Shown in pieces: positions 26,206 through 40,066 of a DNA stretch of 64,000 nt. Origin of the DNA: Scenedesmus sp. PABB004 (taxonomy: Eukaryota); assembly GCA_014905635.1 (NCBI GenBank), contig JABVCE010000005.1:186001-250000 (forward strand). Direction: 5' to 3'. A program made the position numbers and the translations under genes. The stretch's first letter is position 1, and every line of letters begins with the position of its first letter. Below the pieces are notes generated by a model. It searched no databases, was not told the DNA's origin, and saw only the letters and a list, made by a program, of their open reading frames with translations.

Positions 26206-29200
26206 ATGTGGGGGTTCTTCGCGCTCGGCCTCGTCGGCGTGGGCAGCACCATCGCGGCGCTGCTGCGCCGCTACGCCGCGCCGAGCGTGCCGCTCGTCGT
26301 GAGCGGCGCGACCGCGTACGCGTGGCTGGTGAGCATGAGCATCGTGCTCATCACGCCCATGGACGTCGCCGCCGCGCTCGCACACGCGCCCGAGGCGGCC
26401 ATCGGTGTGCTCTGGAAGATCACGTACTGGTCAACGCAGGCGCGCCGCGCGACGCCGCGACGCGCCGCCGCCGCCTGGCTGGGCGCGGCGCCGCCGCGCC
26501 GCCACCACCCAACGACGGCGCGCACCGCGCCGCGCCACTCCCCCAGTCCCCCCGCCGCCGCCGGTCACGCCCGTGCCCTCGCGCCCCCGCTGCTCGCGCC
26601 CCCGCCCCCGTGCCCGCCTGGCCGCCCCGCCGCGCGCGCAGGTGCTGACGTGGCTGGCGCTGCCGTTCTTCCAGGTCTACGCCGACGCGGGCGACTTCAC
26701 CGTCGGCGGGCGCGCCCTGACCAGCCTCAAGGAGAACGGCCTGCTCTACGGCCTCGCCGCGGCGGCGGGTGCGCGAGCGCGCGCATGTGGCGGGAGGGGG
26801 GGAGGGGGGCACTGGGTGTGTGCACTGCGTGTGTGGGCGTGTGCTGGGCGGCTGGGCACGCGCGCGTGGGGCGTGCGTGGGCGTGCGCGGCCGCCCCTCC
26901 GCGCCCCGCCGCCGGCGCGCGCCAGCGGACGCCCGCCCGCCTCGGCACTGCCGCCCGCCTCCCGCCCACCCACAACCTCCACAACCTCCCGCGCTTTCTC
27001 TGCCCCCACCAGGCGTGGTGGGCCTGCTGGTCATCGTCGTCGTGGAGCGCTCCCTCGCCGCGAGTGACCTGCCCGCGCTGGGCATGGCGCTGTCCAACAC
27101 GTTTGGCCTGTGCGCTGGCATCCTGCTCATGGGGTACGGCCTGGTCGAGATCCCGCGCGAGACGTGGAAGGCCGACCCCGCGCACCAGCTCAAGTGGTGC
27201 GCGCACAGGTGCGGGCGCGGCAAGGGCGCGGCGGCGGCGAGGCGGCGGCGAGGCTGCGGCGGCAAGGCTGCGGCGGCAAGGCGGCGGCGGCAAGGCCGCG
27301 GGGGCGTCAAGGCTGCGGCGCGCCGGGCGAGCCGCCGCTTGCGCGACCGCCGCCGCGGCGCAGGGCGGGTCGGTTTGCTGAGGAGGTGCTGCGCACGACG
27401 GCTGAGCTGGAGAGCGTCGTGACGGTCATCGTGGCCAACGACAAGCAGATGCCGCGCCGCGACCCGCTGCGGCCCTACATGGCGGTGCGACGCCGCGCGC
27501 CGCGCGGCGCGGCGCGGCGGCCGGGCACGGCGCGCGCGCGCCGGCCTCTCGCTGTGTGCTGCGCGGCGCGTGTGAGGCCCCCCGCCGCTGCGCCGCGCCG
27601 CCGCGGCGCGCGCAGATCATCTCGGCAGCCGCCGAGAGCGAGTCGCCGGTCAAGCCGAGCGCCGTGCTGGCGGGGGGGTACGACCTGGACGCGCTGCACG
27701 CGGGTGCGCCGCGCGGCGGCGCCCCGCACCGCATTGGGGGGCCTCGCCGCGCCGCGTGCGCCCGCGCTTCACTCCACCTCCCTCCTCCCTCGCTCGCTCC
27801 GCGCGCACGCTCGCGCGCTCTCTCCGCTCTCGCTCCCCGTCCAAACCGCGGCCGCCCCCTCCTTCAAACTCAATTTCAAACGCCGCCCCCGTCCCCTCAC
27901 CTCATCTCACCTCCCGCCCCGCCAGACGACCTGGAGTACAACTATGACATGGCCGGCCTCGCCGCGCTGCGCCGCCGCCTCGCGGCCGCGATCCACGAGT
28001 TCCAGGCCGCCGCCGCGCAGTACGAGGCCGTCGTGCGCCAGGCGCGCGGCAACGCCTGCCGCGCCGCACGCGGGCCGGCGCGGCGCGCAGCAGGCCCAGC
28101 GCGCTGAAGCGTCCCGCCCTGAGCCCCGCCCGCGCCCGCACCTGTCGGCGCAGGCGCTGGAGCACGAGGCGGTGGTCAAGTGCCGCCAGCTGGGCGTGTA
28201 CGAGCCCCCCGGCCTGCCGCCCGGCGCGACGGGCCTCGCCGCGGCCGTGCGGCGCGCGGCGTGGCGCTGGCGCTGCGTCGCGCAGGTGCGGCGCCGCCCC
28301 TCGCGCGCGCCCCGGCGCGCCTGCTCCCGCGCCCGCTCAGCCGCGCCCGCGCCCGCGCCCGCGCCCCGCCCCGCGTTGGCAGCCGGGCGCGCGCAAGGTG
28401 GTGGCGGCGCTGCTCGCGGCGATGAGCGGCGTGGTGGTGTGGAGCGAGGCGACCATCTTCACCGGCGGCCACCCAGACCTCTCGCCCTTCTCACGTGCCA
28501 TTCGGTGCGCGCCACGCCGCGCGTGCGCGTGCGCCTCGAGCTCCGCCCGCCTGGTCCCCCGCTCACGCACGCTCACGCGCGCTCACGCGCCGCCCGCGCC
28601 GCCGGCCGCGCCGCCGCTCGCGCAGCGGCGCCGCGGGGCGGCAGTGGGGCGCGCAGCTGCTCGTCGCGCTGCCGCTCGGCTACATCTGCTGGTGCACCGC
28701 CTTTGCGCTCTTCCGGCTCAACGCGTTCAACTACAACAAGCTCGCCCCGCGCGCGACGACGGGCGCGGCGCTGATGCAGAACGGCAGCCTCATGGCGCGC
28801 TTTGCCGCGCCGACGTGCTGGAACCTGCTGCACATGGTGCACATGGACGCCGCCGTCGACGCGAGCGGCGCAAAGACCGTCTTCACGCAGGCGCGCGCGC
28901 ACGGAGGGGCGAGCGTGGCGGCGGCCGGGGGGAGGGGCAAGCGCGCGCGCGCGGCGCACGCGCCGCGCCGCGCCGCGCCGCGCGCGCCGCGCGCGCGCGG
29001 CGAGGCGCCCCGCGCGCGCGCGCCGTCACGCGCTGCCGCGCCTGCGGCCGCCTCACCTCACGTCTGCTGCCCGCCGCAGAACATGGGCGGCATGACCGTC
29101 CTGCCGGTGCTGGGGCAGCACCTCAACACCTACCTGCCCGCGCTGCTCGTGCTGCACGTGAGCCTGGTGTGGTTCAACCTCTGGGACCGCCTCGCCGGCG

Positions 29201-30236
29201 CGTGCGTGGGCTCGCGGTTCAGGTTCAACAAGTGAGCCGCCGCGCGTGCGGCGTGGGGTTTGCACCTGGCGCGCCAGGCGGCGCGCTGGGCAGCTCGGCG
29301 GTGCCCGCGCGCGCGCCCTGACGTGGCCCTCTCTCTGTCCCTCTCTGCGCCTGCGTCCTGCCTGCGTCCCTGCCTGCGTCCCTGCCTGCCCACGTGTGCG
29401 GCGGGCAGCGACGACGTGGACGACCAGTACACGGAGAAGGGCCGCCTGCTGCTGCGCAAGGAGGGCGAGGCGCTCGCCAACGGCCTGCGCATCGGCGAGG
29501 TGCTCGCGGCGGACGACCTGGAGCTGCAGCTCCCCGGCTTCAAGCAGCGCAAGCGTGAGGCAGCCCGCGCCGCGCAGCGCCTGCGCAGCGCCGCGCCGCG
29601 CAGCGCCCCCCGCGCAGAGCACGCGCGCCGCCGAGCCCCAGCGCGTGCCGACGTGCCGACGCGTCGACGTGCCGCGACGTGTGCCGCCGCGCAGGGCTGA
29701 GGAAGAAGACCAGCTGGTTCAGCTTCGGCCGCCCCGCGGCCGGCAGCGGCGGCGGCGCCGCCGCGGGCGGCGACGCGGGCGGCGCCGGCGCCGCGGGCGG
29801 CGCGGGCAGCAGCGCGGCCGCGGCGGCGGCCGGCGGCGCCGCCGGGAGCCGCCTGGAGCGGCTGCCCATGCTGGGGTCCATGCTCGCGGGGCGCAGCGAC
29901 GGCGACGCGGCCGGCGAGGGCCGCGCGGGCCTGCTGTCGAGCCTTATGGGCAACAAGTGAGAGAGGGGCCAGGGGCGGGGCAAGAGCGGGGGCTGGGAGC
30001 GCGCGCGTCAGCGGGCTGGGCTGGCGCGGGCGCCGCTGAGCGCCGCCGCCGCCCCCGCCCGCGCGCGCGCGCGCAGGCACGGCGCGAGCCCCGCGAGCAG
30101 CGACGGCGAGGGCGCGCGGTCGGGCCTGGACGGCATCTTTGCCGAGATCTCGACGCCCGCGCCGGGCGGCGGCCGCGGCCGCGGCGGCGGCGGCGGCGGC
30201 GGCGCGGGCACGGCGCGGCGGGGGTCGCGCGGCTGA
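26206..30236 (+). CDS. LMBR1-family (LMBRD2-like) multi-pass membrane protein; multi-exon
   Basis: LLRRYA, ITPMDV, LWKITYWSTQ|VLTWLALPFFQVYADAGDFT, SLKEN, ALSNTFGL..LMGYGLVEIPR, WSE, YLPALL, LWDRL. Confidence 0.93.
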
Positions 30237-30454
30237 GCGCGTGCGTGCGGCCGCTCTGGATTCAATTCACGGTAACAGCGGCAGTGCCGAGACACAAGGC
30301 AAGCAAGCACGGAGCGCGGAGGGTCGGGTCAGGCAGGCACCAGCACAGCACAGCACACCGCGCTCAGCGCGCAAGGCCCGGCGCGCGCAAGGCTCTGCGA
30401 GTTCACCACCTGCGCAGGTGGTGCGCATGCATGCATGCACAGCACGACGCGCAC
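29954..30454 (+). repeat. Direct repeat copy A: last intron, last exon and 3'UTR of the LMBR1-family gene
   Basis: Core 30084-30454 is near-identical to 32823-33191. Weaker similarity extends to the last splice donor (caagtgag..ggggcc). Confidence 0.92.
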
Positions 30455-30533
30455 GTGGCGCAGCCGCCGGCCCGCTCGACTGAAGCTGCTTGTGCCACGG
30501 GTGTTGCTCAACTGGAGCTTGTTGATCAGGCTG

Positions 30534-30618
30534 GTGTGCGCAATGTTAACATTGCTCAACGTTGCGCACACACACCACGGGTGTGCGCAACGTTGAGCAA
30601 TGTTAACATCGCGCACAC
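30534..30618. repeat. Hairpin H1: 38-bp arms with 1 mismatch, 9-nt loop, AT-rich, nested palindromes
   Basis: gtgtgcgcaatgttaacattgctcaacgttgcgcacac / gtgtgcgcaacgttgagcaatgttaacatcgcgcacac. Confidence 0.95.
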
Positions 30619-30623
30619 ACCGT

Positions 30624-30689
30624 GCCGCGCGAGCACCGCGCAGCCCGCGCCGCGCGAGCACCGCGCAGCCCGCGCCGCGCGAGCACCGC
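30624..30689. repeat. Tandem repeat, 25-bp unit x ~2.6
   Basis: Unit gccgcgcgagcaccgcgcagcccgc repeated head-to-tail. Confidence 0.9.
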
Positions 30690-30739
30690 CCGTGCCGCCG
30701 CCCCACCGGGGGCTGCTAGGGCACGGCGAGGGGCCAGCC

Positions 30740-30820
30740 GTCCCTGCCGTTGTACAGGTCCGCGGCAGCGTGGGCCTCAACACCCTGAACTACCCAGCGG
30801 ACCTGTACAACGGCAGGGAC
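30740..30820. repeat. Hairpin H2: perfect 24-bp arms, 33-nt loop
   Basis: gtccctgccgttgtacaggtccgc (30740-30763) / gcggacctgtacaacggcagggac (30797-30820). Confidence 0.95.
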
Positions 30821-30932
30821 CTTGTCGCTGCCCTCCTCGGCGCGGCCGCCGCGCCGGGGTCGTCGCCGTCGTCGCTGCCGCTGCCGCCGCTGCCGCCGCT
30901 GTCGCCACGCCCGCCGCTGCCGCCGCCCTCGA

Positions 30933-31057
30933 CCTCGCCCGTGTGGGGCACCGCCTGGGAGGGCCGCACAGATCTTGCAGCTCAACTTGTTCAGACTCAA
31001 CATGCTGTACGGCAAGATCTGTGCGGCCCTCCAAGGCGGTGCCGCACCCGAGCGAGG
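30933..31057. repeat. Hairpin H3: 32-bp core arms (1 mismatch) with imperfect extension, 33-nt loop
   Basis: ggcaccgcctgggagggccgcacagatcttgc (30947-30978) / gcaagatctgtgcggccctccaaggcggtgcc (31012-31043). Confidence 0.95.
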
Positions 31058-31060
31058 CCG

Positions 31061-31214
31061 GCGAGGCGCGCGCCCGCCGGCTCAGGCGCGCCAACGGCGG
31101 CCACCGCCGTCGCCTCCGGCTCCTCCCGGCTGTGACCAACGATGGGCAGCTGGAGGCGGCGGCGGCGGCCGCCACCGCCGCGGCCGCGGCCGAGCCGGCC
31201 GGCGCGCGGCTCGC
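31061..31214. repeat. Hairpin H4: bipartite stem (26-bp core plus ~21-bp outer stem)
   Basis: Core ggcggccaccgccgtcgcctccggct / agctggaggcggcggcggcggccgcc. Outer gcgaggcgcgcgcccgccggctc / gagccggccggcgcgcggctcgc. Confidence 0.85.
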
Positions 31215-31400
31215 CGCCGCCGCCCAGCGGCAGCAGCAACCGAGCTGCGGTGAGGTCGCGCAGCGCGGCGCCTGCGTCGCCCTGCAGCAGCTCGCCCACC
31301 CGCGCCAGCAGCGCCTGCAGCCCCGCCACCGCCCAGCACGGCGGCGGCAAGCTCGCCGCGAGCGTCGGCGGGCGCGAGCGCGACCAGCGCGCGCCCGCGC

Positions 31401-31498
31401 GCCGGCGGCGGCACCACGAGCTGCGGCGATTGCTCCTCTCCCTCCTAGACGCAGGAGGGAGAGGAGTGATCGGCGCAGCTCGTGGTGCTGCCGCCGGC
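31401..31498. repeat. Hairpin H5: 46-bp stem, 6-nt loop, 3 G-U pairs and 1 mismatch on the + strand
   Basis: gccggcggcggcaccacgagctgcggcgattgctcctctccctcct-agacgc-aggagggagaggagtgatcggcgcagctcgtggtgctgccgccggc. Confidence 0.95.
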
Positions 31499-31701
31499 AC
31501 CGTCCGCGGCGGCACGTCGCGCACGAGTGGCGGCGGCAGGAGCTGCGGCAGCAGAAGCCAGCGGCGGCAGCGGCAGTCGCGCGCCCGCGCCGCGAGCACC
31601 TCGCCGCGCGCTGCGAGCTGCAGCATCGCCTCGGGCGGCGCTGCGACGCCTGGGAGCACGCGCGTGCCCCAGTCGCCAAGCGGGGCCCGCGCGCCGCAGC
31701 T

Positions 31702-31808
31702 CGCGGCGGGCACGCGGGGCGCGCGGCCTGAAGGTCGTCCATCTCGTCCATACACAAAGAGATGGGCAGATCGACGACCTTGAGGCCGCGCTCCGCGTGC
31801 CCGCCGCG
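31702..31808. repeat. Hairpin H6: ~45-bp bulged stem, A-rich 10-nt loop
   Basis: cgcggcgggcacgcgg..gcggcctgaaggtcgtc-catctcgtccat / atgggcagatc-gacgaccttgaggccgcgctccgcgtgcccgccgcg. Confidence 0.9.
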
Positions 31809-31822
31809 CGCCGCGTGCCCGC

Positions 31823-31928
31823 CTCCACCGGCGGCGCGCCCTGGTCGTGCCCGCGCGCCGCAGCTCGCGGGCTGCTTCTGCGCCGGGGGCTGCGACGTGC
31901 GGGCACGACCAGGGCGCGGCCGGTGGAG
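31823..31928. repeat. Hairpin H7: ~40-bp stem
   Basis: ctccaccggc..cgcgccctggtcgtgcccgcgcgccgcagctc / gggctgcgacgtgcgggcacgaccagggcgcg-gccggtggag. Confidence 0.92.
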
Positions 31929-31996
31929 TGCCGCGCCACGCCGCCGGGCACCTCGGCCGTGGGCTGCTGGCGGGTGAGCGACGTGCGCTGCCAGCG

Positions 31997-32100
31997 CGCT
32001 CGCCCCCGGCGCGCGTGGTGCGCGCCGTGCTGGAAGCAGACGCCGAGGCCGGGTTTGCCTTCCAGCACGGCGTGCGCCACGTGCGCCGAGGGGGCGGGCG
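31997..32100. repeat. Hairpin H8: 30-bp core in which all three non-Watson-Crick positions are G-U on the + strand, plus inner and outer stems
   Basis: cggcgcgcgtggtgcgcgccgtgctggaag (32007-32036) / cttccagcacggcgtgcgccacgtgcgccg (32059-32088). Confidence 0.93.
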
Positions 32101-32128
32101 AGTACGCGACGTAGGAGTCGTGCGCCTC

Positions 32129-32215
32129 GTGCGCCGCGTGTCGACATACGTGCAGGTCGGCGGCTCTCGTACGAGAGCCGCCAACCTGCACGTCGCGTGC
32201 ACGCCCGCGGCGCAC
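32129..32215. repeat. Hairpin H9: 46-nt spacerless palindrome (1 mismatch) with outer 10-bp stem
   Basis: acgtgcaggtcggcggctctcgt|acgagagccgccaacctgcacgt at 32148-32193. Outer gtgcgccgcg / cgcggcgcac. Confidence 0.93.
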
Positions 32216-32755
32216 CCCGGGCGCTGCTTTGGCGCGGCACTCAGCGGCGGCGGCGCCGGCAGCAGCGGCGGCGCCATGCCAGCCAGCGCGCGCCGACGGG
32301 GCCGGAGTGGTGCGGGCCTGCGCGGGGGGGGGGGCGCCGGGGCGGCGGGCGCGTCGGCGCGGCCGTCGGCGCAGCAGCGGCGGGCGCCAGCACGCCGCGC
32401 GCGTGCGACGGGGGCGCCGGCGGGCGCGGAGCCGCGCCGAGCGGCCCGCGGGGGTGTGTCCCGGGCGCGTGCGGGGGCGCGCCTGGGGCACGCGCCTCCA
32501 CACGACGGCGGCGCCCTGCGACGCGCTCGCGCCGTCGGCGCTGCTCGCGCGCGCGCAGCGGCCCAGCAGGCCCGCCAGGGCCGCGGTCTCGGGCTTCATG
32601 CTGCCTGTATCGCAATCTGGCGGCGCGGGGAGGGCTGTCAAGGGCTCGCGGGGCCAGCTCGGGCGGGGCCGCGGCGGCACAGCGCCGCGCAGGCGCTGCT
32701 GCATGGGCGGCGACCGCGGGCAGGGCGGGGCTGCGGGCATCTCCGTGGGGCGGGG

Positions 32756-33191
32756 CAAGTGAGGGGCCCGGGCGGGGGGCACACGGCGCGGGCTGTGGCG
32801 CGGGCGCCGCTGAGCCCCGCCGGCGAGCCCCGCGAGCAGCGACGGCGAGGGCGCGCGGTCGGGCCTGGACGGCATCTTTGCCGAGATCTTGACGCCCGCG
32901 CCGGGCGGCGGCCGCGGCCGCGGCGGCGGCGGCGGCGGCGGCGGCGCAGGCACGGCGCGGCGGGGGTCGCGCGGCTGAGCGCGTGCATGCGGCCGCTCTG
33001 GATTCCCAGCCACTCACGGTACAGCGGCAGTGCCGAGACACAAGGCAAGCAAGGACGGCGCGCGGAGGGTCAAGGTCGGGTTCAGGCAGGCACCAGCACA
33101 GCACAGCACAGCACACCGCGCTCAGCGCGCAAGGCCCGGCGCGCGCAAGGCTCTGCGAGTTCACCACCTGCATGCGCAGCACGACGCGCAC
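32756..33191 (+). repeat. Direct repeat copy B: degenerate duplicate of the LMBR1-family gene 3' end (splice acceptor deleted)
   Basis: Matches copy A through SGLDGIFAEI..RRGSRG*, gcagtgccgagacacaaggcaagcaag and ggctctgcgagttcaccacctgc. Lacks the gcgcag acceptor and has several small indels. Confidence 0.92.
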
Positions 33192-33513
33192 TTCCACTAA
33201 CAGGCAGGCCCAGGGCCCCGCCTCGCCGCCGCCGGCCGGCCGCGGATTTCCGCGGCGGGCGCGGCGCAAATCACAGGGAGGGCAGCCGGCTCCAAGCATC
33301 ATCGCGTCAAATGTGGTTATTGACCGCGCGGCGCGCGCCAGCCAGGCCGGCCCGTGCGGCGCCAGCAGCGAAAAATCGGCGCCGCCGCCCGCGCCTGCGC
33401 TGCGCTGCGCTGCGCAGCGCAAGCGCCACACACCCCCTCGCCCCCGCGCCGCACGGGCGGCGCCCGCCGTCGCGGCGCGGCCCCGCCGTCGCGGCGCCCG
33501 CGCGCTCACGCGC

Positions 33514-35077
<1,564 letters not shown>

Positions 35078-35879: not shown

Positions 35880-36890
35880 ATGGGCGGCGGCGGCGGCGCG
35901 CTCGTGTGTGTGGGCGACCGCCTGGGCGCCGCCGACGAGTGGGCGCCGGGGCCGGGCACGTACGTGCGCGGCGGCGGCGTGTACGCGTCGATCGTGGGCG
36001 CGCAGGCGGCGACGCCCGGCGAGGGCGGGCGCCCGGTGCGTGCGGCGCGGCAGCAGTGCTGCGGCGACGCTGCTGCGCGCCCGCGGCCCGCCGACGCGCC
36101 GCCGCCGCCGCGCAGGGCGTGCTCGCGGTCGTCGCGCGCGGCGCGGCGCCGGTGGTGCCGGAGGCTGGCAGCATTGTCATCGCCAAGGTGCGCCGCCGCC
36201 GCCCCGCGCCGGGCTCGAAACGGTGCCGCCGCCGGCCTGAGCGCCCGGCCTGAGCGCCCGGCCTGAGCGCCCGGCCTGAGCGCCGCGCCGGTCGCGGTGC
36301 GGCCGCGCCCGCGCGCGCAGGTGACCAAGGTCAGCCCCACCGCGGCGCACGCGCGCATCGTGTGCTGCGGCGCGCAGGCGCTCGACGCGCACTTCACGGG
36401 CGTGGTGCGGCAGCAGGACGTGCGCGGGCACGAGGTCGACAAGGTGCGCCGCCAGCGCCGCCAGCGCCGCGGCAGGCACGCCGCCGCCGCGCGGCGCGCC
36501 GACCCGCGCGCCCGCCCGGCCCGCGCGCCGCGCCCAGGTGGTGATGGCCGACTGCTTCCGCCCGGGCGACACCGTGCGCGCGCGCGTGCTGAGCCTGGGC
36601 GACGCGCGCAGCTACTACCTCACAACGGCGGACAACGCGCTGGGCGTGGTGCACGCAAAGAGCCTCGCAGGCGCGCGCGGCGGCGGCGGCGGCGCCGCCG
36701 CGGCTCCCCCGCGCCCGCGCGCCCCCCGCGTCCCCGCGCCGACGCCGGCGCCGGCGCCGTGCCGCGCCGCCGCCGCGCGACGTCTGCTCCGACGCCCGCA
36801 GGCGCGGCGATGGTGCCGATCAGCTGGCAGGAGATGCAGTGCCCGCAGACAAAGCTGGTGGAGCGGCGCAAGGTCGCCAAGGTGGACTGA
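35880..36890 (+). CDS. CSL4: Exosome complex component CSL4 (EXOSC1); 5 exons
   Basis: [82 protein letters not shown]. Confidence 0.96.
36232..36283. repeat. Intronic tandem repeat, 13-bp unit x4
   Basis: ccggcctgagcgc repeated four times in CSL4 intron 2. Confidence 0.92.
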
Positions 36891-37221: not shown

Positions 37222-40066
37222 CTAGCGCCGCCGCGCGCCCTTGCTCGAGCCTGGTGCCTCCGCCGCCGCTGCGGCAGCCGCCTGGAGCCGCTTGCACACC
37301 GGCCGGTGCGCCGGCCACGCTGCTGTCTGGCAGTCCTTGCTGCAGAAGCGCGCGGCCTTGCAGCCCGCACAGCGCGAGCTCTTGCCGCGCACCAGCTCGA
37401 GCTCGCTCAGCCCCGCAAGGCTGCCGCACGCCGCGTGGTTGCAGCAGCACGCGAGCGGCACCGCCGCGCACACCGCGGCCGCAAACACCTGCGCCTGCGC
37501 CGCCAGCGCGGCGCCGGGCGCGGCGTCGCCGGCGTCCAGCGCGCCCGCCAGCGCGGCCTGCAGCTTCTGCTGCTTCGCCAGCAGCCGCTCGTGCGCGGCG
37601 CCCGTGCACGCCTCGAGCTGCACCAGGCGCAGCCGCTCGCCCAGCAACTGCACGACCTCCTGCTGCTGCACCAGCGCGTCCAGAACGTCGCCTGCCGGCG
37701 GCGGCCCAGCGCTGGCCGCCGCCAGGTGCCTGTCCAGCAGGCTTGCCATGGCCGCCAGGCAGCGCGCCGCAAGCACGAGCCACAGACCGGGGCCCTGCTC
37801 GGCCGGGCCGGCGGCAGGCGTGCGGCCCGCCGCGCCGCGCCGCGCCGTGGCTGCCGTGGCGGCCGCCGCGACGGCCCTGCCCTGCTGAGCAACCTCAGCA
37901 AGGCCACCGTGGCGCGCAAGGCGTGGGATGATCTCCGCCGCGGCGAAAGCCTTCACGCCCGCCAGCATCGCGCAGAACAGCTGGCCCTGCAGCTGGCCGC
38001 CCCCACCCGGCGCTGGAGCGGCCCCGCTGCGGCTGCTGCCGGCCCTGCCGCGGCCGCTGCTGACCCCGCTGCGGCTGCCGCCGCCGTCGGCTGCCGCGAA
38101 CAGCGCAGGCAGGTCTGAAGCCTGGACGATCTGCGCTGTCCACATGAGAACAGCAGGTATATTGCCTCGCTCCTCTGGGGCCTGGCGGCCCAGGGAGCGC
38201 ACGACCGCCTCCAGCGCCTGCGCGCGACGGCGCCCGGCGCCTGGCTGAAGCAGTCCGCCACAGTCGCGCCGAGCCCTGCGCGGCGGCGGCCAGGCACGTG
38301 GGCGCGAACCGCCAGGCTGCGCCTGCCCTGTGAGAGAGCCACCCGCGTGCCTGCTCACCGATGCGGGGCTCCAGGAGGATCAGCGCCTCGCAGGTGCACC
38401 AGACAGTCCCGGCCTTGAGCTGGGCACTGATGCTGTCGCCGTCAGGCGCCGACAGCAGTGCCGGCAGGACGCGCTGCACCAGCTCGGCGGCCAGCGCGCG
38501 CGCGCCCGCCGCCGCGCTGGCGGCTAGCTCCACACCGCCATCGCTCTGGCACCGCCGCACCAGCAGCTGCGCGCAAACCTGCAGGCCCTGCACAGACAAA
38601 CAGGCCGGGACGAAGGTATCTTGCTTGCTCAGGAAGAGTCCAGCCAGCTCCGCCAGCACCAGGCTCACCAAGCTGACGCCCGCGGCGGTCGCCTCGCGCA
38701 GCGCCGCGCTGCCGTCGCCGCCGGTGGCAGCGGCGGCCTCGGCGAGCGCGGGCGTGAAGCGCAGCGGGTGCTGCTGCAGGATGTGCAGAAATGCGAGGAT
38801 GGCTGCGCCGGCCTGGGCGCACTCCGCCTCGGGCATGCCCCCTCCCCAACTGCTGTCGGGCGTGAACCAGCTGCCATCGCCCATGCCCAGGGTGGCCAGC
38901 AGCGCCAGGTGGTGGCCCGGCACAACCGCCAGCGGCTCGGCCGCGCCGCCGTGGTGAGCGTGCAGCTGGCAGGCAACCAGCGCCAGGCCGGCCACCAGCA
39001 GCTGCTGCACCGCCGGCGACGCCAGTGAGCGCTCGGCCGCGGGCTCGCTGAGAGCTGGCAGGCAGTCATTGACCCATCGAACCCCGAGCTCAGAGGCGCG
39101 CATCAGCATGTCGCGGCGCCACTCCACCAGCCGGCCGCTGCGCCACTCCAGCACACTGCCAAACAGTGCACGCGAGTCGCTCGAGGCGGAGCCGCGCGGA
39201 CCGCCGGGACCCCGAGCGCGGCGCGGCGGTGCCGCCCACGCCGGCGCCGAGCGCAGAATGGCGCACGCCAGCTGCGCCGCGGGCTCCAGCACCGCAAGCG
39301 CCTGCGCCGCGGCGGCTGTCGTCGCTGGCGAGAAGAGGCTGGGGGCGCCCCGGGTCTGTGTGCCGCAGGCAGCGAGAGCCGTGTTGGCGGACGTGATGAG
39401 CACGTCTGCCAGTGCGAGGTGGAAGCCCCCATCCATGCGCGGCCCCGCCGCCTGCCAGTCGCGCTCCTCGGCCTCGAACACGGCCACGTGAGCGGCGCAG
39501 CTCGCCTCCAGCACGGGCAGCAGGCCTGCAGGCGGGCAGGCAGGCAGGCGGGCGGAGCGCGCGTCAGCTGCCAGCCCATGGGGCGGGCAGGCGCTGGCCG
39601 ACCAACGCGCGCGGCCGGGCAGGGAACGCCTCGGCGCGGCAGCCGCCAGCGCCCGCGACTCACCCGCGTCCACCAGCTCCGAGAACGCGGTGCGCTGGGG
39701 GGCCTGACCACTGGGCCAGCGCTCGACGCTCAGCACCAGGATCACAACAACGCGGCACAGGTTCAGGCAGGCTGCCTCCAGCTGCACGGCCGGGAAGTCG
39801 GCAGGGCGCGCCTCCACCAGCGCCAGGCCGTGCACGACCGCGCGCGCCGCCCACCACACCAGGCGGCGGTCGTGGAACAGCGGCAGCAGCTCGGCGTCGG
39901 GCGTGCCGTCTATGCTGTCAACCCACGCGGCACGCTCCAAGCCCTCCAGGTCTGCCAGCTCGCTCAAGCTGCGCGCCAGGCAGCAGCGCTGCACCGCCTC
40001 CAGCAGCACCGCCGGCACGCCGCCGTTGGCCGCCGCACGCACCGGCGGCATGGCGACGCTGCTCAT
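37222..40066 (-). CDS. Large protein with C-terminal MYND zinc finger (lineage-expanded chlorophyte family); about 3 coding exons
   Basis: CCNHAACGSLAGLSELELV..RCAGCKAARFCSKDCQTAAWPAHRPVCKRL at the C-terminus. Long coding-like exons upstream. Confidence 0.85.

Follow-up and report, generated by a model that had tools for sequence, protein, structure and literature searches.

The window examined here, meaning the whole 64,000-nucleotide stretch of DNA that was analysed, comes from Scenedesmus sp. PABB004, a very GC-rich green alga (78.5% GC) whose genome has been reported to contain just 1.31% repeats (PMC12571836). Two convergent genes, LMBRD2 on the plus strand and a DUF5765-family gene on the minus strand, enclose a non-coding spacer of ~3.3 kb that carries an array of nine hairpins spanning 1.7 kb. 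The first hairpin begins 298 nt downstream of the LMBRD2 stop codon, and the array is bracketed by two copies, diverged from each other, of a ~450 bp segment that holds the last exon of LMBRD2. The genes and the bracketing copies are as follows.

26206 to 30236, plus strand: LMBRD2 (LMBR1-domain) gene; Pfam LMBR1, E 2.6e-19
29972 to 30458, plus strand: left copy of the ~450 bp direct duplication; repeat search, self-BLAST and alignment
32747 to 33195, plus strand: right copy, in which the last exon of LMBRD2 is present as a pseudo-copy; repeat search, self-BLAST and alignment
33514 to 34790, minus strand: DUF5765-family gene, convergent with LMBRD2; Pfam DUF5765, E 1.8e-11, in ORF 34200-34814(-)

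The LMBRD2 exon query is 100% identical to the protein "lmbrd2 [Scenedesmus sp. PABB004]" (P0001), which bears out the supposition of the initial annotation that the host is a chlorophyte, and tblastn places this protein on 26206-30233. Read directly, the last intron extends from a donor at 29957 to the acceptor CAG at 30074-30076 and is followed by the last exon (30077-30236), with the coding sequence ending in TGA at 30234-30236. On the opposite side of the spacer, one minus frame is strongly coding-like from about 33555 upward; the DUF5765 pieces are probably exons of a single gene, and its 3' end, taken from the end of the ORF, would lie at about 33514.

All nine inverted repeats described in the initial annotation are present where it had placed them. 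They are listed below with the z scores of their folds against shuffled sequence on the plus and minus strand, respectively; the hairpins themselves have no assigned strand.

30534 to 30618, no strand: H1, 38-bp arms with 37 positions paired, 9-nt loop, 53% GC; z -12.5 and -13.5
30740 to 30820, no strand: H2, perfect 24-bp stem, 33-nt loop; z -9.2 and -10.2
30930 to 31060, no strand: H3, 65-nt arms at 83%, with a 46-bp core of which 42 are paired; z -11.9 and -13.5
31061 to 31214, no strand: H4, weaker gapped hairpin, 85% GC, low-complexity GGC/GCC runs; z -6.3 and -6.0
31401 to 31498, no strand: H5, 46-bp arms with 42 paired, 6-nt loop; z -17.4 and -14.0
31695 to 31815, no strand: H6, 24-bp core with 22 paired, within arms of ~48 nt; z -12.1 and -10.9
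31823 to 31928, no strand: H7, 30-bp core with 28 paired and, outside it, a perfect 10-bp stem; z -12.3 and -11.7
31995 to 32100, no strand: H8, 30-bp core with 27 paired, in 42-nt arms at 83%; z -11.4 and -7.6
32129 to 32215, no strand: H9, 23-bp core with 22 paired and no loop, plus an outer stem of ~10 bp; z -7.9 and -9.2

Eight of them (H1-H3 and H5-H9) are strong hairpins with high-complexity stems, a property that had been claimed for most of the array, and the perfect 24-bp stem singled out in H2 was confirmed with 24 of 24 positions paired. The spacers of these eight measure 0-33 nt, with none in H9. Each arm of H1 is a quasi-palindrome in itself, and three of the four mismatches in H5 are G·T. 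H4 is weaker and consists of GC only; its arms are identical at 53 of 63 aligned positions with 2 gap events, and it is absent from our gapless hairpin scan (stem of at least 18 bp, loop of up to 40 nt, at least 85% paired), yet it folds more stably than 200 of 200 shuffles (z -6.3).

The gapless scan returned 21 hairpins in the 64 kb, 8 of which lie within 30534-32193. When the region was shuffled 300 times, the mean was 0.01 hairpins with a maximum of 1, as against the 8 observed, and 40 block-wise dinucleotide shuffles of the whole window gave a mean of 1.9 and a maximum of 6. Sliding 120-nt RNA folds, comprising 913 windows over positions 1-54,840, fell below z = -6 in 8 of the 28 windows that lie in the region and in 0 of the 885 others. 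In addition, for each of the 18 folds obtained from the nine hairpins on both strands, none of 200 shuffles was as stable (z from -6.3 to -17.4 on the plus strand and from -6.0 to -14.0 on the minus strand). The 13 hairpins outside the cluster have stems of 18-26 bp and a GC content of 86-100% in 11 cases, the other two having 75% and 77%. Because these outside hairpins are short-stemmed and mostly so GC-rich, the earlier remark that nothing comparable exists elsewhere in the 64 kb is correct, and it is borne out by both the gapless scan and the sliding folds. The hairpins of the array are real and exceptional.

Repeats also lie around and among the hairpins. The left copy of the duplication comprises the last LMBRD2 exon together with a portion of the intron before it and ~220 nt of 3' flanking sequence. 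In self-BLAST, 30061-30413 matches 32798-33171, and the aligned duplicates differ by 16 substitutions in 375 positions and by 9 gap events. The right copy lacks the 35 nt that hold the splice acceptor in the left copy; residues 579-706 of P0001 also match 32568-32975 with 52% identity. A 23-mer conserved in both duplicates had 0 matches in metagenome contigs. We rejected an LTR/TRIM-like element as an explanation for the flanking repeats: visual inspection revealed neither a primer-binding site nor a polypurine tract that was convincing, and the left repeat carries the stop codon of the host LMBRD2 gene along with its last exon and a portion of the last intron. Since the last exon of the host gene lies inside them, they are a segmental duplication rather than LTRs. 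Smaller repeats occur at the following positions.

30404 to 30423, no strand: perfect, spacer-less palindrome of 10+10 bp; alignment of the duplicates, by eye
30620 to 30689, no strand: 25-nt tandem repeat directly after H1, 2.8 copies, 97% matches; Tandem Repeats Finder
31685 to 31706, plus strand: 22-nt exact direct repeat, copy 1, at the left base of H6
31849 to 31870, plus strand: second copy of this 22-nt repeat, within the left arm of H7

The palindrome at 30404-30423 arises from a 21-nt stretch that is present in the left duplicate only, and either state could be ancestral. As this 21-nt indel yields a 10+10 palindrome in just one of the duplicates, palindromes have been gained or lost at the locus.

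The initial annotation regarded the hairpins as mutually unrelated, which holds for most of them, with the exception that the 22-nt exact direct repeat joins H6 and H7. They do not form one MITE or other repeat family, as there are neither common termini nor further copies of any arm in the 64 kb. Arm divergence runs from 0 to 17% across the hairpins, so that they differ in age. Taken together, the arms of H3, H5, H6, H7 and H8 show 28 differences in 245 positions, and those of H1 and H2 with the core of H9 show 2 in 85. The former proportion differs from the 16 in 375 of the duplication (Fisher p 0.001, with the hairpin grouping chosen after the data had been seen). Divergence of the arms thus points to several events over time, and a single catastrophic rearrangement that made all hairpins and the duplication at once was rejected because arm divergence varies among the hairpins and differs from that of the duplication. 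The hairpins that survive at ~11% arm divergence have been either tolerated or selectively kept, which counts against a purely mutational reading. Among 38 stem mismatches there are 9 G·T and 9 A·C, a test of low power with 18 informative mismatches, and by this equality neither strand shows preserved wobble pairing. The better-folding strand varies between hairpins, being the minus strand for H1, H2, H3 and H9 and the plus strand for H5, H7 and H8; no single precursor strand is therefore favoured. With no wobble bias and neither strand folding consistently better, the array carries no strand-specific signature and gives no sign of selection on RNA.

The hairpins are genuine chromosomal inverted duplications. 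The explanation that we prefer, with a probability of roughly 0.45, is that each originated independently as a local inverted duplication of the template-switch type, in a spacer prone to rearrangement, and that any role as Dicer substrates would be secondary. Short-range template switching during replication or repair would have formed them one at a time: the growing strand would briefly copy the opposite strand, or itself, leaving a reverse-complement copy that directly adjoins the template or is separated from it by a short spacer. This is the arrangement found in the array, where inverted copies lie beside their templates with spacers of 0-33 nt (0 for the palindrome at 30404-30423) and where direct and tandem repeats are interspersed among the hairpins. 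A reverse complement adjoining its template is the product described for template-switch mutations (PMC10710096), and the miRNA births attributed there to template switching likewise involve a one-step inverted copy beside the template, short or absent spacers, and combinations of inverted and direct repeats. In those miRNA genes, mismatches accrue after birth and transcription is borrowed from an existing gene (PMC10710096). Unlike the array, however, the events in that study were inferred from phylogeny, number one or two per locus and mostly have shorter stems, whereas here nine are clustered and come without an ancestral state. The ~450 bp duplication, the short tandem repeats and the palindrome in one duplicate only indicate that the spacer is rearrangement-prone in other respects too. 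Also in favour are the lack of target-site duplications and of further arm copies in the window, the low repeat content reported for the genome, the unequal divergence of the arms and the missing wobble and strand bias. Some observations count against template switching. If the process were purely mutational, hairpins ought to be scattered, but the remaining ~62 kb contain none like these, and under a template-switch origin we have no explanation at hand for such a hot spot. The indel behind the palindrome could be a loss, and the two duplicates are the sole comparison at the locus of a state with and a state without it. If the hairpins did arise by template switching, any RNA role, for example through cleavage by Dicer of a read-through transcript or of a long 3' UTR of LMBRD2, would be a consequence of the structures and not their cause.

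The position of the array just past a stop codon recalls the situation in Chlamydomonas, and it too stands against a purely mutational origin. In this alga miRNA and siRNA hairpins are often located in 3' UTRs and cut by DCL3, at least 43 mRNAs contain hairpins that DCL3 may cut directly, and miRNAs lie in the UTRs of 13 of these (Valli et al., 2016, PMC4817775). Like the DCL3 precursors of Chlamydomonas reinhardtii, the hairpins described here belong to a chlorophyte, are long, near-perfect fold-backs located at the 3' end of a protein-coding gene or shortly beyond it and have stems long enough for a Dicer-like enzyme. In contrast to those precursors, which occur one per mRNA, nine different hairpins are packed into 1.7 kb. 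The words "polycistronic" and "cluster" do not occur in the main text of PMC4817775, and among the 10 of 37 literature matches listed, judged by title and the start of the abstract, none reports a polycistronic hairpin cluster in a chlorophyte.

The initial annotation took the array for a candidate small-RNA locus; the array does have the structures that a hairpin locus of this type requires, and its position agrees with the Chlamydomonas precedent. It is conceivable, if on the whole unlikely, that the array is a selected hairpin cassette in the LMBRD2 3' UTR or in a read-through transcript and is cut by a Dicer-like enzyme. The products would be miRNA-like or hairpin siRNAs, and the host mRNA would be destabilised in cis, as with DCL3 in Chlamydomonas. 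Nine stable stems of 23-46 bp or more argue for such a cassette, eight of them having cores of 23-46 bp with at least 90% pairing, as would suit a miRNA or hairpin-siRNA precursor (near-perfect stem of at least ~21 bp), and the array begins 298 nt beyond the stop codon, where Chlamydomonas keeps functional Dicer-cut hairpins. Selection would also explain the clustering and the persistence of older hairpins more easily. A cassette of this kind would be compatible with a template-switch origin, given that new miRNA hairpins are documented to arise in this way (PMC10710096). On the other hand, wobble-compatible pairing, which is expected under selection rather than strictly defining, is missing from the 9 G·T and 9 A·C mismatches; folding favours no one precursor strand, the window contains no targets or parent sequences on the scale of a 20-mer, and the coding-like core of H2 has no matching annotated protein. 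Slightly more doubtful is the full proposal of a polycistronic cassette in the 3' region of LMBRD2 in which at least eight unrelated hairpins of different ages, born by template switching, would be processed by Dicer into small RNAs that tune LMBRD2 mRNA.

Searches for known RNAs and for related loci gave no support for the small-RNA reading either. Rfam 15 produced 0 matches at the gathering score across the whole window, with just 4 sub-threshold matches at E <= 1, all to hairpin families of animals or viruses that are unrelated (mir-4716, for instance, with 45.2 bits against a gathering score of 76), and tRNA and tmRNA searches of the window gave no match. The motif TGTAA, which we take to be the Chlamydomonas poly(A) signal, is absent from the locus; it occurs 6 times in the window, but not between 21659 and 44703. 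A literature search on RNAi genes in Scenedesmus or the Sphaeropleales yielded nothing usable. Among public sequencing runs carrying the stretch, no RNA run was listed, and two DNA metagenome runs (X1 and X2) contained 5-6% of the sampled words, their depth stemming mostly from GC-rich low-complexity matches of other organisms. Their contigs cover flanks, with 262 nt from X1 on 30302-30558 and 238 nt from X2 on 29192-29429 (1 difference); no listed piece spans a hairpin, which leaves them uninformative on both palindromes and expression. A search for related loci with the LMBR1 exon confirmed 8 of 185 pattern matches, and just one of these, L001, is long (20 kb). This locus, from an alga of 73% GC with an LMBR1 exon 75% identical to ours, contains one 18-bp hairpin, no hairpin array after the LMBR1 gene and no synteny beyond LMBR1; as it is too distant, we do not count it against conservation.

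Clusters of hairpins are well known from animals, where polycistronic miRNA clusters and the hpRNA loci of Drosophila hold several hairpins in 1-2 kb, possibly on one primary transcript. These loci are conserved, strand-specific and supported by reads, and the arms of Drosophila hpRNAs match target genes. The array resembles them in the close packing of several hairpins.

Parts of the array have gene-like codon usage, as judged against 300 dinucleotide shuffles for each score. The loop and right arm of H2 (score 15.8, reached by 0 of 300 shuffles) and the inner part of H3 (14.6, 0 of 300) are coding-like on the plus strand, and both scores exceed the 95th percentile of 639 window tiles. The apex of H6 is coding-like on the minus strand (10.8, 1 of 300), as is one stretch between hairpins.

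31230 to 31345, minus strand: coding-like, lying between H4 and H5; codon-usage score of 8.2, reached by 0 of 300 shuffles

These signals, in the cores of H2, H3 and H6 and at 31240-31345, would fit the remnants of one protein-coding gene or two, either unannotated or in decay, with the hairpins as inverted duplications of exon fragments that have no role of their own. We consider this improbable: the coding-like pieces fall on both strands and in different frames, codon usage is not gene-like in H5, H7 and H9, whose scores are reached by 122, 254 and 44 of 300 shuffles, respectively, and the window holds no paralogue. A gene model through the hairpins, based on periodicity and frame analysis, was dropped because strands and frames were in conflict. 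Nor was any credible homologue found. In Pfam searches the upstream LMBR1 domain was the sole match among 17 long ORFs, and 10 short coding-like pieces gave no match at E <= 5. Searches for homologous proteins found none for ORF 30997-32595(-), which encloses the coding-like stretch at 31230-31345, or for the H2 core (52 aa, against longer proteins). HMMER returned one match, with an E of 7.6e-5, for ORF 30789-31253(+) against 1.84 billion representatives; we judged it to be compositional, as it involves a proline/arginine-rich stretch with an internal repeat.

An assembly or consensus artefact, for instance from fold-back chimeric long reads, is very improbable. The assembly comprises 77 contigs and is for that reason presumably based on long reads, from which such chimeras could derive. 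Fold-back chimeras, however, yield long perfect palindromes, whereas the nine structures here are small, have arms that differ by 0-17% with indels and lie within unique sequence that remains colinear up to and into two conserved genes.

Also unlikely, and the least probable of all, is a nest of miniature inverted-repeat or foldback transposons of several families, perhaps inside a repeat-bounded element. Short hairpin-folding elements of 80-155 nt that abut one another and a bracketing pair of ~450 bp direct repeats would suit it. Target-site duplications, however, are lacking: with 49 boundary choices tried for each hairpin (shifts of up to 3 nt per side), the longest direct repeats at the flanks measured 2-5 nt. 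The hairpins share no termini, none of the arms recurs in the 64-kb window, the bracketing repeats with the LMBRD2 last exon are a segmental duplication, and a repeat content of 1.31% has been reported for the genome (PMC12571836). In an exact-pattern scan of prokaryote genomes, a 28-mer from an H1 arm had 0 matches; a 17-mer from an H2 arm matched 3 viral contigs only, by chance, with no extension and no inverted partner.

If the array is mutational only, as local template switching would have it, the locus would be a clear natural hot spot of this process with hairpins of several ages side by side, and the compact, repeat-poor and extremely GC-rich genome of this alga would be useful for studying how palindromes originate and persist. 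If the hairpins are instead transcribed and diced, they would constitute a small-RNA cluster of multiple hairpins in a green alga other than Chlamydomonas and Volvox, in which new hairpin genes accrete in the 3' region of a host gene, and would suggest cis-regulation of LMBRD2 by Dicer cleavage. Were the Dicer-processed cassette to prove true, it would be a chlorophyte counterpart of the multi-hairpin miRNA clusters of animals, caught while growing.

GC content is about 80% throughout the window. Inspection of the sequence bore out nine fold-back hairpins (H1 to H9, together the array) at 30534-32215, where the initial annotation had placed them. A gapless scan of the whole 64 kb (stem of at least 18 bp, loop of at most 40 nt, at least 85% paired) returned 21 hairpins, eight of which fall within the 1.7 kb array:

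H1, 38 bp, 37 paired
H2, 24 bp, 24 paired
H3, 46 bp core, 42 paired
H5, 46 bp, 42 paired
H6, 24 bp, 22 paired
H7, 30 bp, 28 paired
H8, 30 bp, 27 paired
H9, 23 bp, 22 paired, no spacer

H4, with GGC/GCC runs and 85% GC, was not picked up at these thresholds; its fold beats 200 of 200 shuffles (z -6.3). Against dinucleotide-shuffled controls, the comparison suggested at the outset, the array is exceptional within the window, with 8 hairpins observed versus a mean of 0.01 in 300 shuffles of the region. In sliding RNA folds (913 windows of 120 nt, covering positions 1-54,840), 8 of the 28 windows within the array fell below z = -6, as against 0 of 885 elsewhere. Beyond the cluster lie 13 short hairpins with stems of 18-26 bp, versus about 2 from shuffles (a mean of 1.9 per shuffled window in 40 block-wise dinucleotide shuffles). 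Eleven of these 13 are 86-100% GC and resemble self-complementary triplet-type runs, so that the excess looks largely compositional. The claim that nothing comparable occurs elsewhere in the 64 kb is thus upheld, and the array is a real hairpin cluster, unique within that stretch. The hairpins had also been called mutually unrelated, which stands in that they form no repeat family and fails for one pair, as a 22-nt exact direct repeat, the sole sequence link among them, ties the base of H6 to the left arm of H7.

The exon upstream of the array matches the Pfam family LMBR1 and, at 100% identity, the NCBI protein 'lmbrd2 [Scenedesmus sp. PABB004]' (P0001). The neighbouring features are as follows:

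26206-30233, + strand, LMBRD2, by mapping of P0001 to the window
donor 29957, acceptor 30074-30076, + strand, last intron of LMBRD2
30234-30236, + strand, LMBRD2 stop codon
coding-like signal down to ~33555, ORF end 33514, - strand, DUF5765-family gene, 3' end inferred
34704-34790, - strand, putative part of the same DUF5765-family gene
~35900-36600, + strand, exosome subunit domains ECR1_N and EXOSC1/CSL4
~37290-37380, - strand, MYND zinc finger (zf-MYND) gene

The array therefore lies within a ~3.3 kb spacer between convergent genes, LMBRD2 (+) on the left and the DUF5765 gene (-) on the right, with the exosome-subunit and zf-MYND genes placed further right. The gene neighbourhood is compact and, for a eukaryote, ordinary; the genome is reported as 39.8 Mb in 77 contigs with 7,092 genes, 78.5% GC and 1.31% repeats (PMC12571836). 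A (GT)73 microsatellite (33842-33987, 88% matches) near the inferred 3' end of the DUF5765 gene falls in the window's lowest-GC kilobase (71%). The motif TGTAA, which serves Chlamydomonas as poly(A) signal, has just six occurrences in the 64 kb and none between 21659 and 44703; PABB004 may rely on a different one, or TGTAA may be scarce just because of the 80% GC.

A search with the LMBR1 exon recovered eight metagenome loci, of which only one is long (L001, an algal contig of 20,207 nt and 73% GC). Its LMBR1 exon is 75% identical to that of the window, and its LMBR1 exons are kept as far as the point that matches window position 29535, with nothing common beyond. The exon order is that of the window, the introns are shorter and the downstream genes are not shared. 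L001 contains no hairpin array and is too distant to test conservation. Metagenome contigs aligned to the window leave the hairpins uncovered.

The array is bracketed by a direct duplication of ~450 bp (29972-30458 and 32747-33195); an alignment of the two copies shows 16 substitutions over 375 aligned positions, along with 9 gap events. The left copy runs from within the last LMBRD2 intron through the last exon to ~220 nt past the stop, and an identification of the flanking repeats as LTRs was rejected on this content. The right copy, located 2.74 kb downstream of the genuine sequence, is a diverged version of the LMBRD2 last exon and the flank just 3' of it and lacks the 35 nt bearing the splice acceptor, which suggests that it is probably a dead pseudo-exon. 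Because of a 21-nt indel between the copies, only the left one carries a 10+10 palindrome (30404-30423), perfect and without a spacer, indicating that this locus gains or loses palindromes, either direction being possible. Arm divergence in H3, H5, H6, H7 and H8 taken together is 11.4% (28 of 245 positions), above that of the duplication (16/375; Fisher p 0.001), and in H1, H2 and the H9 core it amounts to 2 of 85 positions, these age groups having been drawn post hoc. Such a range speaks for a series of events at different times, not a single catastrophe.

Spacers in the array measure 0-33 nt, inverted and direct repeats are mixed, and tandem repeats lie among the hairpins (25 nt x 2.8, plus a 9-nt and an 18-nt unit). 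Adjacent inverted copies, short spacers, mixed repeats, absent transposon hallmarks, several ages and the palindrome indel together lead us to read the hairpins as template-switch products, each of which would pair a template with an adjacent reverse-complement copy. In H1 (30534-30618) both 38-nt arms are themselves quasi-palindromes with matching ends of ~14 nt, which allows a second reading of H1, as a unit present in two direct copies with its interior inverted, a pattern described for template switching. Such events are reported to make perfect hairpins in one step, some of which later turn into miRNA genes (PMC10710096). We give a probability of roughly 45% to a template-switch origin combined with no dedicated function. 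This origin leaves the clustering unexplained, with nine events together and none in the ~62 kb around them.

The main rival, that the array has been retained by use as a candidate Dicer substrate, appears possible but doubtful. In Chlamydomonas, DCL3 is reported to cut 3' UTR hairpins into miRNAs or siRNAs, with the host mRNA lowered (PMC4817775), and the start of H1, 298 nt past the LMBRD2 stop, fits this precedent. The 38 stem mismatches include 9 G·T (wobble on the + strand) versus 9 A·C (wobble on the - strand), and the better fold is on the - strand for H1, H2, H3 and H9 and on the + strand for H5, H7 and H8; neither measure carries a signature of RNA-pairing selection on either strand, the 18 informative sites giving little power. 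Searches of Rfam returned no family at gathering score and, at E <= 1, no more than four matches below threshold, resembling animal or viral hairpins; a tRNA search found none.

That the array is a decayed coding gene is improbable. Gene-like codon usage occurs in the lower-GC cores of H2, H3 and H6 and at 31240-31345, with scores reached by 0, 0, 1 and 0 of 300 dinucleotide shuffles, and is absent from H5, H7 and H9 in the same test. The coding-like stretches lie within or between hairpins, on both strands and in differing frames:

30758-30854, + strand, coding-like by codon usage
30960-31049, + strand, coding-like by codon usage
31725-31799, - strand, coding-like by codon usage
31230-31345, - strand, coding-like by codon usage

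Pfam gave no match for them, and neither a paralogue within the window nor a credible homologue turned up; 17 ORFs across the array region contain no Pfam domain. The stretches may be what is left of older coding sequence after its fragments were inverted and duplicated. An assembly artefact is less probable still, since arms that diverge by 0-17% and carry indels make chimeras unlikely, and a transposon nest is the most remote reading, as neither target-site duplications around the hairpins nor a second copy within the 64-kb window were found. When the arms and the duplicate were looked for in metagenome, prokaryote and viral collections, three chance 17-mers were the only exact matches.

Template switching and use as a Dicer substrate are compatible, the one as origin and the other as use. 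It is reasonable to regard the array as a candidate Dicer-substrate cassette, and the likeliest reading of the cluster is a hot spot of template switching in the 3' flank of LMBRD2.
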